A stretch of 32,000 nucleotides of DNA, taken from assembly GCA_003144275.1 (NCBI GenBank), contig NJBF01000039.1, forward strand, positions 1 through 32,000, written 5' to 3'. Origin of the DNA: Candidatus Heimdallarchaeota archaeon B3_Heim (GTDB taxonomy: Archaea; Asgardarchaeota; Heimdallarchaeia; Hodarchaeales; Hodarchaeaceae). Positions within the stretch are counted from its first letter, which is position 1, and each line of letters opens with the position of its first letter. The notes under the pieces were generated by a model that did not search any database, had not been told where the DNA came from, and saw only the letters and a program-made list of their open reading frames with translations. Of the stretch, positions 27,169-32,000 are shown in pieces. The translations under genes and the position numbers were made by a program.

Positions 27169-28794
27169 TTAGATGCTTGGTTTAAAAGTATCTATTATCT
27201 GTTTTTGTGATTTAGAGATATTATAATGGTTGAGGATAAACTCGTCCAATTGAGTTATTTCCTCATTTCCCAAACATTTTTCTCTCTCTATCTTCATTTC
27301 TTCGATTTTTTGTTCCTCTAATGCGGAAAATGGTAATTTAATGGGAAGTCGCTTCAAATAGTTGATTGCTATTTTAGGAAATATTTTCTTTACCGTTTTA
27401 AACTTATGGTTAAGATAAAAAGTCAATAACGAGGAGTTTAATATGATTTCTAAGTGTTTTAAATTGAAATGAGACCATTGTGGGTTGAAGGTAATTATAT
27501 ACACATCGCACACACAAAAAAGCCTGTTTGGATCATAAACTGCTATAAGCTCACGACCAATTCTTCGGAGGAGCAATTTAGGTGTCATATACATTGATTT
27601 ATCTTTAAAAATTGATTTCCTGTTCGAATCGAAATCAATATATCTCTTATCTCCTACTATGGAAAATTTACTGATATTTCTCCCAGCTATCAATGGTATA
27701 GAATCCTTTGTAGAAGGTGTTTCGCTAGTTAAGGTTGACTTAAATCCTAACTCGATTCCACGTGTAATAGATGCAATATCCTTTAGAAATAGCGAATCTA
27801 TTTCCATAATCTCAAGAATTTCAGTAATTTCTGTAGCCATATCAGGTACAATGTACCTAAACTTCTGATCCATAATCATACTTTGGTCATTCTTTTTAAT
27901 CTGAGAAATTCCACTTTCAACTGAATACCTACTGAATTCAATGATATTGGAAAGACTCTTCTCGGCTTCAGTTTTCTTATATCCCATTACAATGCATGTT
28001 TCAACAGATACTGAAGGAAATACATTGTCATCCAACATTATGATTTTCTTGATGTAAATCTGATTGAGTAATAAATCCCTGAATGCTTGATATCGAAAGT
28101 TTGTAGTGAAGTTATTCGGAATAAGGAAGATTAACGCTCCTCCTTCTCGTAATAGATGTATTGACCGTTCCACAAATAGAAGATAACTTTCTATTTCGGG
28201 ATCAACACCTTCAAAAATTCTTCTATAGATATTTTTCTCTTCTGAAGTAAATGAAATCCCAAAGGGGGGATTTCCTATACAAATATCATATCCCTCTTTA
28301 GTATTAGGTAAGGGCCATTCATAAAACCAATGAAACGCATTTTTAACCAAACTTATGTCTGGCTGAGTAATGTTAAGATCATCGAAGAAATAACGAGTTA
28401 ATTTTTCTTCTGTATAATAATTCTTCATGGTTTTAGGAGGTTTAATATACCCAATTAACGCATTACCAGTTTTAAACGAAATTTCAATATCCTGATTAGT
28501 CGCTAATTCCCTTTTTTTTGACTCACATAAATTTATAGATTCATTATTTATATCTAAACCATGCAAAATTAGTTTAAAGTTTTTTAGATCACTTGCTCTG
28601 ATGTTGTTCCGGTGTTTCATAATTTCAAATAAAAATCTACCATCTCCAACTGAATTATCAAGGATGCTGATACTTCTAGAACCAAGTGGTTGGTTCAGAA
28701 TCTTGTTAATAAAATCGAGAGAGAGATTGACCATTAATTTTACAATTGCTTGTGGAGTTGGGATCGCTCCTAGTGGTTCTTTTCCTTTATTCAC
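27169..28794 (-). CDS. N6-adenine DNA methyltransferase (Eco57I/TaqI-like, with TRD), no nuclease domain
   Basis: GAIPTPQAIV (motif X), ILDNSVGDGRF (motif I), GLDIN, GNAL, FHWFYEWP, DICIGNPPF (28261-28272), DNVFPSVSVETCI; TaqI-C-like PKLLLRRIG and FPKIAINYLKRLPI. GTG start with SD. Confidence 0.9.
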   Translation of the reverse strand: MNKGKEPLGAIPTPQAIVKLMVNLSLDFINKILNQPLGSRSISILDNSVGDGRFLFEIMKHRNNIRASDLKNFKLILHGLDINNESINLCESKKRELATNQDIEISFKTGNALIGYIKPPKTMKNYYTEEKLTRYFFDDLNITQPDISLVKNAFHWFYEWPLPNTKEGYDICIGNPPFGISFTSEEKNIYRRIFEGVDPEIESYLLFVERSIHLLREGGALIFLIPNNFTTNFRYQAFRDLLLNQIYIKKIIMLDDNVFPSVSVETCIVMGYKKTEAEKSLSNIIEFSRYSVESGISQIKKNDQSMIMDQKFRYIVPDMATEITEILEIMEIDSLFLKDIASITRGIELGFKSTLTSETPSTKDSIPLIAGRNISKFSIVGDKRYIDFDSNRKSIFKDKSMYMTPKLLLRRIGRELIAVYDPNRLFCVCDVYIITFNPQWSHFNLKHLEIILNSSLLTFYLNHKFKTVKKIFPKIAINYLKRLPIKLPFSALEEQKIEEMKIEREKCLGNEEITQLDEFILNHYNISKSQKQIIDTFKPSI

Positions 28795-28799
28795 CTTTC

Positions 28800-30542
28800 T
28801 TATTCCCCCTCCAAAATTATCTGCTTTTCATTTTGAGATAATTCATAAAGATTGAAAACAATTTCGTCTATAATGGACCTAACATATTCCATCCTTGAAT
28901 ATTTTCCAAATATCCCTTCGACGTAAGATTTATTGACTTTAATTCCTATTTGTTTTCCTAACCATGATAAGTCGTCTACATTTCTTGTTCGAAAAAACCT
29001 ATCAATCTGCTTCATTAACTTAAAGGGATTACTTGTATGATTTTTCTGATTATATATTGACTGATTAACCATTTCATCTAGCAGTTGTTTTAGCTCCTTC
29101 CCTTCATTAAGATACAATTTGAAGATTTCTCCAATCACGAAGAATTGGTCTACGTTTGATTCCTTTTTTGCTGACAAACAAATATTGGGAAGCTGACTCT
29201 TTTCTACCATTTTCTTAATTTTACTACGGAAGTCAGAATTCGAATCACCATCCAAACGAGGAATTATTAGTTTATTTAGATATGGTTTATCTAAATCTTT
29301 GCTTGTTACAAATCGTTTAGTATATACTGCATTTTGTAACCACCAATTTATAAACTTAGATTGAAGTAAAGCACCATATGCATAAATATCATTAGACGAA
29401 GAATAAGGAGGAATTATGTTAATGACAGTTTCATGAGTAAGGTAGACACCTAAGGAATCAACCCAAATTGGAAGATCCAGTTGGAATTTTGGTTTGGTTT
29501 TATAAGCAATAATACGTTGTCCAATTATTTTAGGTTGTTTTAACCTTTTAAACTTAATTTCAGGAACAGCTTCATTTACATAATTACGTTCTGGAAATAA
29601 AAATCCGTGTGTAAGCGAAACTTTTTCTATTAATGGAGTAGATACGTCTTTTACACGAAATCGACTACTTAAACCACGAAAAGCAGTCCATTCGATTCTT
29701 CTGTGATCTTTTAGGAGCTTTTCCATTAGTTTCTGCTCTGAGGGAGTGACACCCACTAAAAAATTATCGAAACGAATCGCGTTTTGAGTCTTTACGGTTG
29801 AAATGAAAGCTAGCTTTTCATTCACAGGATCCCAGATCCCTGTTCGGAACTCTAAAGATGGAGAGATTTTTTGTAGTGTGAGGGCAACTTGCTCTTGCAA
29901 TTGACCAGAAAATTGATTTGCTAAATCAAATACTTCTAAAAGACGAACCTGGGTTAGACATAATTGTCGAAATATTTTCCATTTATTAGAGTAAATAAAA
30001 GGTTTAGGTAAAATAAATGAAAGGATACCCCTGTCTTTCAAGAGATTAATTGACTTCAGTACGAAATAAAGAGCGGATTCTGACGGAATATTCTCTTGGA
30101 CATCTTTAGGACGCAATTTTCTTATTTTATCCCACTCTTGTGGAGAATATTTCGCATGATGAGGAGGGTTAGATATGATTAAATCGTATTTTGTTCCTTG
30201 ATTCTCTGTATCAAATTCAGTCAGAAAATTTTTGAGATGAAAAACAACAGAACATCTATCATCTTTAACAGAGTTAATTACTAATGATTTAGCTCTTGAG
30301 AGCGCAGAAGGGTCAATATCTAACGCATCGATATTGATAGAACAAAATTTATTCTTTAATATCTGAATAAGTGTTCTACAAAAAATTCCTTCTCCAGCTG
30401 ATGGGTCTAACACTGAGAGAGTATCATTATCTCTTGGGTCATCAAGATAATAGACAATGTTTCCAATTATTGCCTGTACAATGTTTTCAGGTGTAAAATA
30501 TTGCCCTTTTTCGCGCTGAGTACGTGACAAGCTGAGTCCCAA
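28800..30542 (-). CDS. N6-adenine DNA methyltransferase (TaqI/Eco57I-like, with TRD), NPPH variant
   Basis: KGQYFTPENIV, VLDPSAGEGIF, ALDID, NFL, DLIISNPPH (30159-30170), LKDRGILSFILPK, FRGLS, PKIIGQRI, LLQSKFINWW. Confidence 0.88.
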   Translation of the reverse strand: MGLSLSRTQREKGQYFTPENIVQAIIGNIVYYLDDPRDNDTLSVLDPSAGEGIFCRTLIQILKNKFCSINIDALDIDPSALSRAKSLVINSVKDDRCSVVFHLKNFLTEFDTENQGTKYDLIISNPPHHAKYSPQEWDKIRKLRPKDVQENIPSESALYFVLKSINLLKDRGILSFILPKPFIYSNKWKIFRQLCLTQVRLLEVFDLANQFSGQLQEQVALTLQKISPSLEFRTGIWDPVNEKLAFISTVKTQNAIRFDNFLVGVTPSEQKLMEKLLKDHRRIEWTAFRGLSSRFRVKDVSTPLIEKVSLTHGFLFPERNYVNEAVPEIKFKRLKQPKIIGQRIIAYKTKPKFQLDLPIWVDSLGVYLTHETVINIIPPYSSSNDIYAYGALLQSKFINWWLQNAVYTKRFVTSKDLDKPYLNKLIIPRLDGDSNSDFRSKIKKMVEKSQLPNICLSAKKESNVDQFFVIGEIFKLYLNEGKELKQLLDEMVNQSIYNQKNHTSNPFKLMKQIDRFFRTRNVDDLSWLGKQIGIKVNKSYVEGIFGKYSRMEYVRSIIDEIVFNLYELSQNEKQIILEGE

Positions 30543-30557
30543 AAATCGTTTTTTTCA

Positions 30558-32000
30558 CTAAGAGCTGACATTCAACATATCTTTAATTTTCTTCGCAGTG
30601 AAAGTCTTACCAGTAAGTACATTACCACTCATTATAATAAGACGATGATTATTTTTGTTGATCATTGATACCAAATTTTTCACCTTCAAATCGTAATTAT
30701 CTGATCTAGTCGATAGCTCAACAACGTGACTCTTACTCGGAACATAGAGAGAAGATTCATACGTCCTAATTAATTTTTCATAACGCACAAAAATTGAGAG
30801 ATCTGCATCGCTCTTGGTTAGAGATTCTTCTTCTTGACCTCTGGCGTCGAAATTTAATTTCAGAGCTTCCTTAGATACATTAATATGGACAAAAATCGGA
30901 TTGAAAACTCTAAATTGCTTGATTAAATTCTCTCGATGATTTGGATGTGAGGGGGAATTAAAATTAGTTCCATCAAAAAATACGACATTGGATTTATTTC
31001 TACGTAGATGACAGGAAATAAGCCATATTGCGAGTCGATAAGTATGGGTACTCTCCCAAGTGGAATAATTTGGTTTATTCATACGATATAATTTTCGAAT
31101 ATGATCTGTTGATATTATATTGATCTTCGGAATTTTTAACGCAGTACATAAGTTTACAACCATTTTAATTCGATTGAGAATTTCATACAACTCTTTTTTT
31201 GAATTAAGTGATGGTTTAACCTCGACTTGCTCACGTAATAGGGTTAAACAAATTCCAATAAACTCTCGTTGTATAGCTTTTGTCTTATCTATGTTTAAGT
31301 AAGCAACAACATCATTTCCATTGATCTTCAAATCTTTCAAATAAATTGGGCTTTGTGAGGCACTTCTCAGTTTTATATCCTTTAACAATGCTTCAATGGG
31401 ATCAGCCTCATTCCCTAACAACTTCCATGCTTTGATAAAATTAAGGTAATCTTCAAGGAATCTAGGATCGATTCTGAAAAGGAATTTCCTTAGTGCATAG
31501 TTTTTTGAAATTTCAGGAGCTAGAGTAGAATAAGGTAAAGGGACCGAATAAATTGTTAAAATGTGTATTATATCATCAATTTGCTTGTTTGGGAATTTGA
31601 GTCCTTTAAGGATACCAATAATCAACTTCTTGTCTAATTTAGGGACAGCATGTGATAACTTATAATCAGTAGCTGATAATTGATGAATAAGAACAGAAAA
31701 TCTGAGATTTACTGAAGAATTGTTGGTAAGATTGTCTATAATACGAAAAGTAATTTCTAATCGTGATAAACCTAAACCTGATATGAGAGTATGCATGAAT
31801 TCAGTATTAAATTGAGGGATTAACTTAGCTAGTACCCCTGTAGTATGTAAGAAGTGCACAGCTTGTTGCCAATATCGCCCCGACATCAATTTCTGTAATT
31901 CAGTTCCAATTCGTTCCTTTGCAACTTGATCAAATACATCTAAATGTCTAGGAACCGCTGCAAGAGATGAATTCTCAACAGAATACCCTAATTCTGAAAC
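30558..32000 (-). CDS. cca: Class II CCA-adding/tRNA nucleotidyltransferase (5'-truncated) fused to a C-terminal P-loop kinase-like domain
   Basis: The frame is open from 32000: VSELGYSVENSSLAAVPRHLDVFDQVAKERIGTELQKLMSG...FLHTTGVL matches the class II 'LGF.I...T..A+...VS.ERI..EL.K+' neck. LRFSVLIH, LKFPNK and LKINGNDV...IG..L..L.E.V...P.LN.KKEL match the Bacillus/Clostridium-type tail. The last ~190 aa carry kinase motifs ISTDHIRK, FDGTNF and GNVLTGKT. Confidence 0.85.
   Translation of the reverse strand, partial: VSELGYSVENSSLAAVPRHLDVFDQVAKERIGTELQKLMSGRYWQQAVHFLHTTGVLAKLIPQFNTEFMHTLISGLGLSRLEITFRIIDNLTNNSSVNLRFSVLIHQLSATDYKLSHAVPKLDKKLIIGILKGLKFPNKQIDDIIHILTIYSVPLPYSTLAPEISKNYALRKFLFRIDPRFLEDYLNFIKAWKLLGNEADPIEALLKDIKLRSASQSPIYLKDLKINGNDVVAYLNIDKTKAIQREFIGICLTLLREQVEVKPSLNSKKELYEILNRIKMVVNLCTALKIPKINIISTDHIRKLYRMNKPNYSTWESTHTYRLAIWLISCHLRRNKSNVVFFDGTNFNSPSHPNHRENLIKQFRVFNPIFVHINVSKEALKLNFDARGQEEESLTKSDADLSIFVRYEKLIRTYESSLYVPSKSHVVELSTRSDNYDLKVKNLVSMINKNNHRLIIMSGNVLTGKTFTAKKIKDMLNVSS

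Follow-up and report, generated by a model that had tools for sequence, protein, structure and literature searches.

A probable circularly permuted P-loop kinase domain joined to a CCA-adding enzyme in Hodarchaeales

Results

Layout of the CCA-kinase gene

We analysed a window of 32,000 nucleotides, positions 1 to 32,000 of contig NJBF01000039.1 from Candidatus Heimdallarchaeota archaeon B3_Heim (an Asgard archaeon of the Hodarchaeales; genome of 3.95 Mb, 94% complete), with a focus on the open reading frame at 30558-32000 on the minus strand. This frame extends past the window edge, and the whole contig gives a protein of 652 amino acids (aa), P0002, in which aa 1-464 are a class II CCA-adding enzyme (CCA2) and aa 465-652 a P-loop kinase domain of 188 residues. 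In Pfam, PF12627 (RNA-binding domain of class II nucleotidyltransferases) is matched in the windowed part and PF01743 at the N-terminus of the full protein. A prediction made from the letters of the window (hereafter the original prediction) had described the kinase domain as circularly permuted, with its Walker A motif at the very C-terminus. The positions that it gave for the INIISTDHIRK strand (31092-31124), for GNVLTGKT (30603-30626) and for the stop codon (30558-30560) are exact. The elements of the gene are the following, in the order of the protein.

30558..32000, minus strand: 3' part of the CCA2-kinase gene (aa 173-652 and stop), which begins outside the window, at contig position about 32516
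31671..31691, minus strand: LIHQLSA (aa 276-282) in the body of the CCA enzyme, a degenerate form of the HD motif that reads LFHDxGK in bacterial relatives (from the alignment and the absence of PF01966)
31125..31229, minus strand: final helix of the CCA tail and short linker (aa 430-464), aligning to the C-terminus of 450-aa bacterial CCA enzymes
31092..31124, minus strand: beta2 with the S-T-D-H-I-R motif (INIISTDHIRK, aa 465-475), first element of the kinase; D471 and R474 correspond to PSTK D41 and T4 Pnk D35/R38 (PMC2275090)
31050..31076, minus strand: P-x-Y-S-x-W-E motif (aa 481-489), common to the canonical 200-aa relatives
30963..30986, minus strand: beta3 with the DxTN motif (VVFFDGTN, aa 511-518), from alignments and the split-chain model
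30933..30962, minus strand: family-specific conserved segment FNxPxHPxHR (aa 519-528), which canonical relatives do not have
30876..30896, minus strand: beta4 (IFVHINV, aa 541-547), from predicted models
30801..30854, minus strand: lid, with NxxxR (aa 555-559) and the KSDAD motif (aa 568-572), from the alignment of orthologues
30654..30728, minus strand: beta5 (aa 597-601) and alpha7 (aa 608-621), the C-terminal end of a canonical domain, from the AlphaFold2 model
30627..30644, minus strand: relocated beta1 (RLIIMS, aa 625-630), a loop of 3-4 residues away from alpha7, from the AlphaFold2 and split-chain models
30603..30626, minus strand: Walker A motif or P-loop GNVLTGKT (aa 631-638), from the motif scan and the alignment
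30561..30602, minus strand: remainder of alpha1 and C-terminus of the protein (aa 639-652), from the AlphaFold2 model and the sequence
30558-30560, minus strand: stop codon TAG of the CCA2-kinase gene

A regular-expression scan of the 652-aa protein finds one Walker A motif, GNVLTGKT, which starts at aa 631 and ends 14 residues before the stop, so that none precedes IISTD, as had been predicted. Pfam gives two weak and split matches in the C-terminal 200 residues, first AAA_33 and then 6PF2K. In the native order, positions 19-124 of the AAA_33 profile fall on the first part of the kinase domain (E 0.004, 18 bits against a gathering cut-off of 27 bits) and positions 9-39 of 6PF2K, its P-loop region, on the last 30 residues. 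The Pfam and PDB profile matches are thus split in the sequence predicted for a permutant. One orthologue, P0070, has a precomputed PF13671 match.

Sequence evidence for the proposed permutation

When 1.84 billion representative proteins were searched exhaustively with a profile, 33 matches were obtained, and those outside the Asgard family are solely canonical AAA_33 proteins of about 200 aa. These relatives match AAA_33 with E down to 1e-31, as well as KTI12, 6PF2K and Zeta_toxin, and a profile of 22 of them matches PSTK along almost its entire length, at 2e-18, and the Pnkp kinase domain from Clostridium thermocellum at 3e-15. They begin with beta1-GxxGxGKS-alpha1 and continue directly with xIxTDxVRK. 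To their own residues ~50-170 they align profile positions ~38-160, mostly with a second matched stretch in addition. The Asgard domain does not follow this canonical order, in which beta1, Walker A and alpha1 stand N-terminally before the xSxDxxR strand, and a collinear alignment requires re-permutation.

We scored all 188 circular shifts of aa 465-652 against a hidden Markov model (HMM) of the canonical relatives. In the native order the best single-domain score is 54.4 bits, while any new N-terminus within aa 585-625 gives 82-84 bits. Moving the tail to the front, a shift of the kind that the original prediction had proposed, therefore raises the score from 54 to 84 bits. The same holds for 18 orthologues, with a mean of 61.8 bits in native and 85.6 bits in permuted order. 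The re-permuted junction is gapless: HRLIIMSGNVLTGKTFTAKKIKDMLN followed by INIISTDHIRK aligns with PALILLCGLPASGKSFVARRIARKLPAVIISTDRVRK. Neither a tandem kinase, nor a fusion of a CCA enzyme with a kinase in canonical order, nor a stand-alone permuted domain was found among the 33 profile matches or the 120 best relatives of the CCA part, and the short profile matches (99-170 aa) resemble fragments at contig ends.

Predicted structure

A model of aa 430-652, built by AlphaFold2 on an alignment of the 18 sequences, reaches a predicted local distance difference test score (pLDDT) of 85.9 and a predicted template modelling score (pTM) of 0.84. Five strands are assigned, the terminal one included, and the elements follow in the order CCA-tail helix, beta2, helices, beta3, beta4, lid helices, beta5, alpha7, beta1, P-loop, alpha1. 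A Foldseek search of the PDB with this model gave nothing at E <= 0.001, with unrelated folds in the top rows, as is expected of an order-dependent aligner applied to a permutant.

A comparison with 48,161 chains was made with VIA-align instead. The best match of the model is PSTK (3a4l; Z 9.7, rmsd 2.7, 134 residues aligned), followed by Kti12 (6qp0, Z 9.1), 6PF2K, putative kinases, the Pnkp kinase (4gp6, Z 8.2), chloramphenicol phosphotransferase and T4 PNK (1ltq, Z 7.8). PSTK, Kti12, Pnkp and T4 PNK are matched only from their strand 2 on: for every target, model residues ~34-195 pair with it from its residue ~24-33 or later, past beta1-P-loop-alpha1, and the last 28 residues of the model stay unaligned. 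A search of the ESM Atlas agrees, with matches to canonical AAA_33 clusters, and finds no full-length permuted look-alike in Atlas clusters of at least 50 members.

We then cut the domain at the alpha7-beta1 loop into two chains, aa 465-620 and aa 621-652, and co-folded them, each with its own alignment, in the presence of ATP and Mg. The interaction prediction score from aligned errors (ipSAE) is 0.82 against 0.02 for the best of three controls, a mark that 58 of 80 solved complexes attain but just 2 of 110 mismatched pairs; this pass, obtained with custom alignments and ligands that deviate from the calibration of the tool, may stem from the predictor's memory of P-loop folds and speaks for likeness, not for binding. 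The runs show at least 92% contact agreement, with a pLDDT of the partner of at least 85. The contacts of lowest error join RLIIM (aa 625-629) to aa 512-514 (VFF of beta3) and to aa 538-543 (start of beta4), and for these contacts of the terminal strand with beta3 and beta4 the expected error is 0.4-0.6 Å. The terminal piece also touches the invariant lid arginine. The predicted sheet is the canonical five-stranded parallel one of order 2-3-1-4-5, with the P-loop strand in its centre; the terminal strand, whose failure to pack into the central sheet would have spoken against the original prediction, is placed between beta3 and beta4.

Orthologues and the integrity of the gene

Searched with a word index, the kinase region recovers 28 proteins or clusters of 599-679 aa, each covering 95-100% of the region and labelled Hodarchaeales, Heimdallarchaeota or other Asgard. 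The CCA part as query recovers about 57 orthologue clusters of Hodarchaeales or Heimdallarchaeia (650-680 aa), all with the same layout. At the level of whole genomes, 16 of 21 in the same GTDB genus encode the permuted kinase domain, and a search of 19 genomes belonging to other families of the class did not find it. The 18 aligned orthologues are 41-72% identical to the window protein over the kinase region.

All 18 share the G, N, V, L, G and K of SGNVLTGKT without exception, which bears out the expected conservation of the terminal GxxxxGKT; the block is the best conserved of the domain, and such constancy in proteins that are only 41-72% identical over this region indicates that GNVLTGKT is not a chance match. 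The C-terminus lies 12-22 residues past the GKT motif in every one of them, and the profile search found no form that continues beyond the usual stop among the 1.84 billion representatives. Two orthologues sit in closed chromosomes. Since independent assemblies and these two closed genomes have the same layout, truncation by the methyltransferase genes downstream, an assembly chimera and a frameshift are excluded, the last two having been raised by the original prediction itself as ways in which it could fail.

Some observations concern single orthologues. The metagenomic orthologue P0064/P0171 (L033:2380-3051) is called as two genes, a 470-aa CCA protein and a 183-aa reading frame. We rejected it as a natural two-gene version: a one-base frameshift lies in the linker before beta2 and VISTDH continues in the other frame, probably through a sequencing or assembly error or in a pseudogene. 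The 90% cluster of P0070 holds a similar split pair, P0165 and P0163. A related metagenome-assembled genome (G018, contigs C59 and C190) has two copies of the pair formed by the CCA-kinase and a 580-aa methyltransferase, with kinase domains 58% and 48% identical to that of the window, which could be a real duplication or strain mixing in the bin.

Catalytic residues and likely function

Residues D471, R474, D515, T517, N518, R559 and K637 are invariant in the 18 orthologues. The DxTN motif at the end of beta3 reads FDGTN (aa 514-518), with D, T and N invariant, and through the profile of canonical relatives D471 and R474 align with the GSDLIRE segment of PSTK. The kinase residues thus align with PSTK D41, DxTN and R120. 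In PSTK, mutation of G14, K17, S18, D41 or R120 abolishes or lowers activity, and D41 aligns with D35, the proposed general base of T4 Pnk (PMC2275090). The invariants of the canonical subfamily (the G, G and K of the P-loop, the D and R of xDxxR, the P and E of PxYxxxE, the Asp of DxTN, the lid Arg, and the S and A of SDAD) are all invariant in the Asgard family as well.

The lid is the place where the family departs from this pattern. The RxxxR motif's proximal Arg stacks on the adenine in Pnk and GntK, and in PSTK the distal Arg is more critical than the proximal one (PMC2275090). At this position the Asgard proteins read NFDAR, with an invariant Asn (N555) for the proximal Arg and an invariant distal Arg, R559. 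As K637/T638, D471, R474, D515 and R559 are all kept, the kinase domain is most likely active, judging from its sequence. The FNxPxHPxHR segment may shape the acceptor site.

The nearest families of the domain are all kinases or ATPases directed at tRNA or RNA, and we infer a function of the same kind here. A kinase of RNA or tRNA hydroxyls, of the 5'-OH type, is a possible form of this activity that we put forward tentatively, and we hold with the same reserve that the domain could be an ATPase stimulated by tRNA or a kinase whose acceptor is a different one. What weight remains goes to another function, possibly linked to the methyltransferase neighbours. The role of a missing PSTK was considered and rejected: the 94%-complete genome has no match to SepSecS (PF05889) and no match near the 290.5-bit cut-off of TIGR03574 (PSTK), which makes such a role unlikely.

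The CCA part and the short paralogue

Over their full length, the N-terminal 440 residues share 34-38% identity with HD-bearing bacterial CCA enzymes of 450 aa from spirochaetes and myxobacteria, and these bacterial proteins end about where beta2 of the kinase starts. Compared with them, motifs A (GGxxRD/DxD), B (RRD) and D (EDxxR) are intact and invariant. In every Asgard member the HD signature has degenerated, with LFHDxGK changed to LIHQLSA (HD to HQ) and a deletion, and PF01966 matches the bacterial relatives but none of the Asgard orthologues; owing to this degeneration, the phosphoesterase activity in tRNA 3'-end repair has probably been lost from the Asgard CCA body. Against PRK13299, the long protein scores 254.9 bits, under the cut-off of 290 and over profile positions 10-236 only.

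A second class II CCA-type paralogue of 387 aa, which has no tail domain, is encoded in the same genome (contig C43; L015:1405-2568, plus strand). It scores 177.7 bits against PRK13299, and between motifs A and B it has an altered loop (YG-QPP for YxDGRRP). Nearly all genomes of the genus have both the long and the short form, a pair that recalls the split CC-adding and A-adding enzymes of some bacteria. A preprint of 2026 (10.64898/2026.05.29.728689) describes class II CCA enzymes from Hodarchaeales, A and B paralogues among them, and reports that one recombinant CCA2 of Hodarchaeum sp., not specified as the long or the short form, completes CCA addition in vitro. The termini are regarded there as variable, and neither a kinase nor a P-loop is mentioned.

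Two other kinase genes were noted. In a genome of a sister family (G034; L032:4325-6634, minus strand), the class II CCA gene encodes 536 aa, without a kinase domain but with another C-terminal extension that is unannotated, and a gene for an AAA_18/AdkA-like P-loop kinase of 230 aa lies 7 bp upstream of it. This kinase was rejected as kin of the permuted domain, as it is AdkA/UPF0200-like and has neither STDxxR nor DxTN. The only canonical AAA_33 protein of the genome studied here (200 aa, with the SDA motif; contig C50, L016:301-2995, plus strand) is encoded between two genes for aminoglycoside-phosphotransferase-like kinases, an arrangement that resembles the bacterial 'bifunctional APH/ATP-binding protein'.

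Gene neighbourhood

Three genes flank the CCA-kinase gene or follow in its run.

28800..30542, minus strand: 580-aa N6_Mtase/Eco57I-like methyltransferase, co-oriented, 15 bp downstream of the CCA-kinase gene
27169..28794, minus strand: 541-aa Eco57I/N6_Mtase/TaqI_C methyltransferase (Pfam), third gene of the run, with a counterpart in three of seven loci
L001:3554-4441, outside the window, plus strand: divergent open reading frame, about 95 bp beyond the start of the CCA-kinase gene

We compared seven loci, that of the window and those of six orthologues down to 41% identity. A core trio is present in all seven: a divergent Eco57I/N6_Mtase/TaqI_C protein of ~860 aa, the CCA-kinase, and a co-oriented N6_Mtase/Eco57I protein of 570-610 aa whose gene abuts or overlaps that of the CCA-kinase. 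A third methyltransferase of ~545 aa comes next in three of the loci, and the outer neighbours are variable. The 580-aa protein has full-length orthologues in kinase-bearing genomes only, adjoining the kinase gene wherever the contig continues, and in the five genomes of the genus that lack the kinase domain this methyltransferase is missing too. Its motif IV reads NPPH, not NPPY/F. Pfam detected no nuclease domain in the two methyltransferases of the window.

Discussion

We regard a circular permutant of a DxTN-group kinase as the best explanation of aa 465-652, with a probability of roughly 85% that applies to the architecture and does not extend to the substrate. The claim of the original prediction, a domain with new termini between alpha1 and beta2 that hangs on the CCA tail, is upheld by the conservation of the terminal motif, the shift test, the fold matches and the split-chain model. 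The region would be one compact P-loop kinase domain of this group (Pfam AAA_33), to which PSTK, Kti12, the bacterial Pnkp kinase and the T4 PNK kinase belong, and its order would be beta2, helices, beta3 with DxTN, beta4, lid, beta5, alpha7, beta1, Walker A and alpha1. A loop of about four residues between alpha7 and beta1 would close the old termini of the domain, and the new termini would fall in the alpha1-beta2 loop, so that the end of the CCA tail runs straight into beta2. Binding of tRNA would then fall to the CCA body and tail, which would bring the RNA substrate to the kinase, and the kinase would act on an RNA hydroxyl, or hydrolyse NTP in response to tRNA, and probably cooperate with the co-inherited methyltransferase-like proteins encoded downstream.

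Several points weigh against this explanation or its functional part. The AAA_33 score in native order is below the Pfam gathering cut-off (18 against 27 bits), and no evolutionary intermediate, of duplication and trimming or of fission and fusion, appears among the relatives searched. All structural support comes from predictors trained on canonical P-loop folds, and a domain-swapped arrangement, with the terminal element in a second protomer, would fit the predictions as well as folding in cis. With Asn in place of the proximal lid Arg, nucleotide binding or preference may differ from that of PSTK and Pnk. The suggested targeting to tRNA, for its part, draws on just two things, the fusion and the tRNA-related nature of the nearest families.

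Among the alternatives, the one that survives best concerns the role of the protein. The long CCA2-kinase could act together with two or three Eco57I-like methyltransferases that have no nuclease, in a conserved module for modifying or guarding some nucleic acid, leaving routine CCA addition to the 387-aa paralogue. The constancy of the core trio in seven of seven loci with varying outer flanks, the confinement of full-length orthologues of the 580-aa methyltransferase to kinase-bearing genomes and the short CCA2 paralogue in nearly all genomes of the genus argue for it. On the other hand, the long form is the more complete CCA enzyme, with full body and tail, intact motifs and the higher PRK13299 score (254.9 against 177.7 bits), a Hodarchaeum CCA2 of unspecified paralogue adds full CCA in vitro (10.64898/2026.05.29.728689), and some wider synteny is also kept, so that the adjacency could in part be inherited gene order. 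We judge this division of labour unlikely, at about one chance in a few.

The permutation itself could also be completed in trans, with beta1-P-loop-alpha1 of one protomer filling the kinase body of another, so that the protein would be active only as a dimer or oligomer. A connector of about four residues between alpha7 and beta1 is very short, and the confident docking of the separated pieces fits cis and trans alike, but the AlphaFold2 monomer closes the loop in cis with a surrounding pLDDT above 90, and the split-chain model brings the end of chain 1 (aa 612-620) into contact with the start of chain 2, as cis folding predicts. We therefore hold an obligate exchange between protomers to be improbable.

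Still less probable, in our judgement, is a dead pseudokinase, an AAA_33-like body with an RNA-binding or structural role and an unrelated C-terminal GxxxxGKT that shares no active site with it. The sub-threshold native Pfam score, the degradation of RxxxR to NxxxR and the lack of a Foldseek match in the PDB would suit such a protein; against it stand the invariance of the Asp and Arg of STDHIR, of DxTN, of the distal lid Arg and of the P-loop Lys/Thr, the gain of about 24-30 bits in collinear score on re-permutation, and the models, which place the P-loop strand between beta3 and beta4 and in touch with the lid Arg. Finally, we give almost no credence to a terminal Walker A that is the stump of a second kinase domain cut by insertion of the methyltransferase gene, or the product of a chimera or frameshift: the reading frame does stop 14 residues past GKT, 15 bp before that gene, and one metagenomic orthologue has a frameshift (though in the linker before beta2), but the end point 12-22 residues after GKT recurs in 18 orthologues from independent assemblies and in two closed genomes, no longer forms occur among the 1.84 billion representatives, and the terminal piece completes the domain in the models.

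The permuted kinase reading places the protein beside several known systems. PSTK and Kti12, the best fold matches (3a4l and 6qp0), have in common with it the P-loop, S-x-D-x-x-R, DxTN and the distal lid Arg, and they too combine a kinase and a tRNA-binding module in one chain. They differ in that their kinase is canonical and N-terminal, with the tRNA-binding domain after it, whereas in the Asgard protein the tRNA-binding enzyme comes first and the kinase is permuted, and in the proximal Arg of RxxxR, which is Asn in the Asgard protein. Clostridium thermocellum Pnkp and T4 PNK are alike in fold and motifs and in the fusion of the kinase to another enzyme of RNA-end processing. Their partner is a phosphatase or ligase, not a nucleotidyltransferase, and their element order is not permuted. 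The stand-alone AAA_33 proteins (PF13671) of ~200 aa are the closest sequence relatives outside the family; they have P-x-Y-S/T-x-x-E and SDAD and become collinear after re-permutation, but they are canonical in order, unfused and without FNxPxHPxHR.

Circularly permuted GTPases of the YlqF/YjeQ/Lsg1 group are a natural precedent for permutation in the P-loop NTPase fold. Unlike the Asgard domain, to which they have no sequence relation, they belong to the TRAFAC class, follow the order G4-G5-G1-G2-G3 and do not have the P-loop at the extreme C-terminus. As for the CCA part, the HD-bearing bacterial enzymes (of the E. coli type and the 450-aa spirochaete and myxobacterial type) likewise join a CCA enzyme to a second activity in tRNA-end repair; the Asgard protein differs in its degenerate HD motif and in the kinase domain gained at its C-terminus.

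The original prediction knew of no described example of this architecture. In databases the fusion is already visible, in the automatic IMG label of one orthologue, 'tRNA nucleotidyltransferase/poly(A) polymerase/predicted kinase' (NCBI label: 'AAA family ATPase'), but the permutation is not. Our literature search turned up no publication that describes a natural circularly permuted P-loop kinase, one with the Walker A strand as the last element of the protein, or a CCA-kinase fusion. The permutation also explains why domain databases leave the domain unannotated in nearly all orthologues.

The broadest picture, which we consider rather doubtful as a whole, would be a vertically inherited module of Hodarchaeales for the end-processing or modification of RNA, probably tRNA. 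It would consist of the CCA enzyme with its permuted PSTK/Pnkp-type kinase and two or three nuclease-less, NPPY-type methyltransferase-like proteins, the kinase phosphorylating an RNA hydroxyl or acting as a gate through tRNA-stimulated NTP hydrolysis.

For P-loop kinases, the permuted domain would mean that the nucleotide-binding unit of beta1, P-loop and alpha1 can relocate as a cassette. Hodarchaeales are among the closest archaeal relatives of eukaryotes, and in them the archaeal CCA enzyme has been replaced by a bacterial-type one. A kinase joined to this bacterial-type CCA enzyme, and co-inherited with methyltransferase-like genes, points to undescribed tRNA or RNA biology in the Hodarchaeales.

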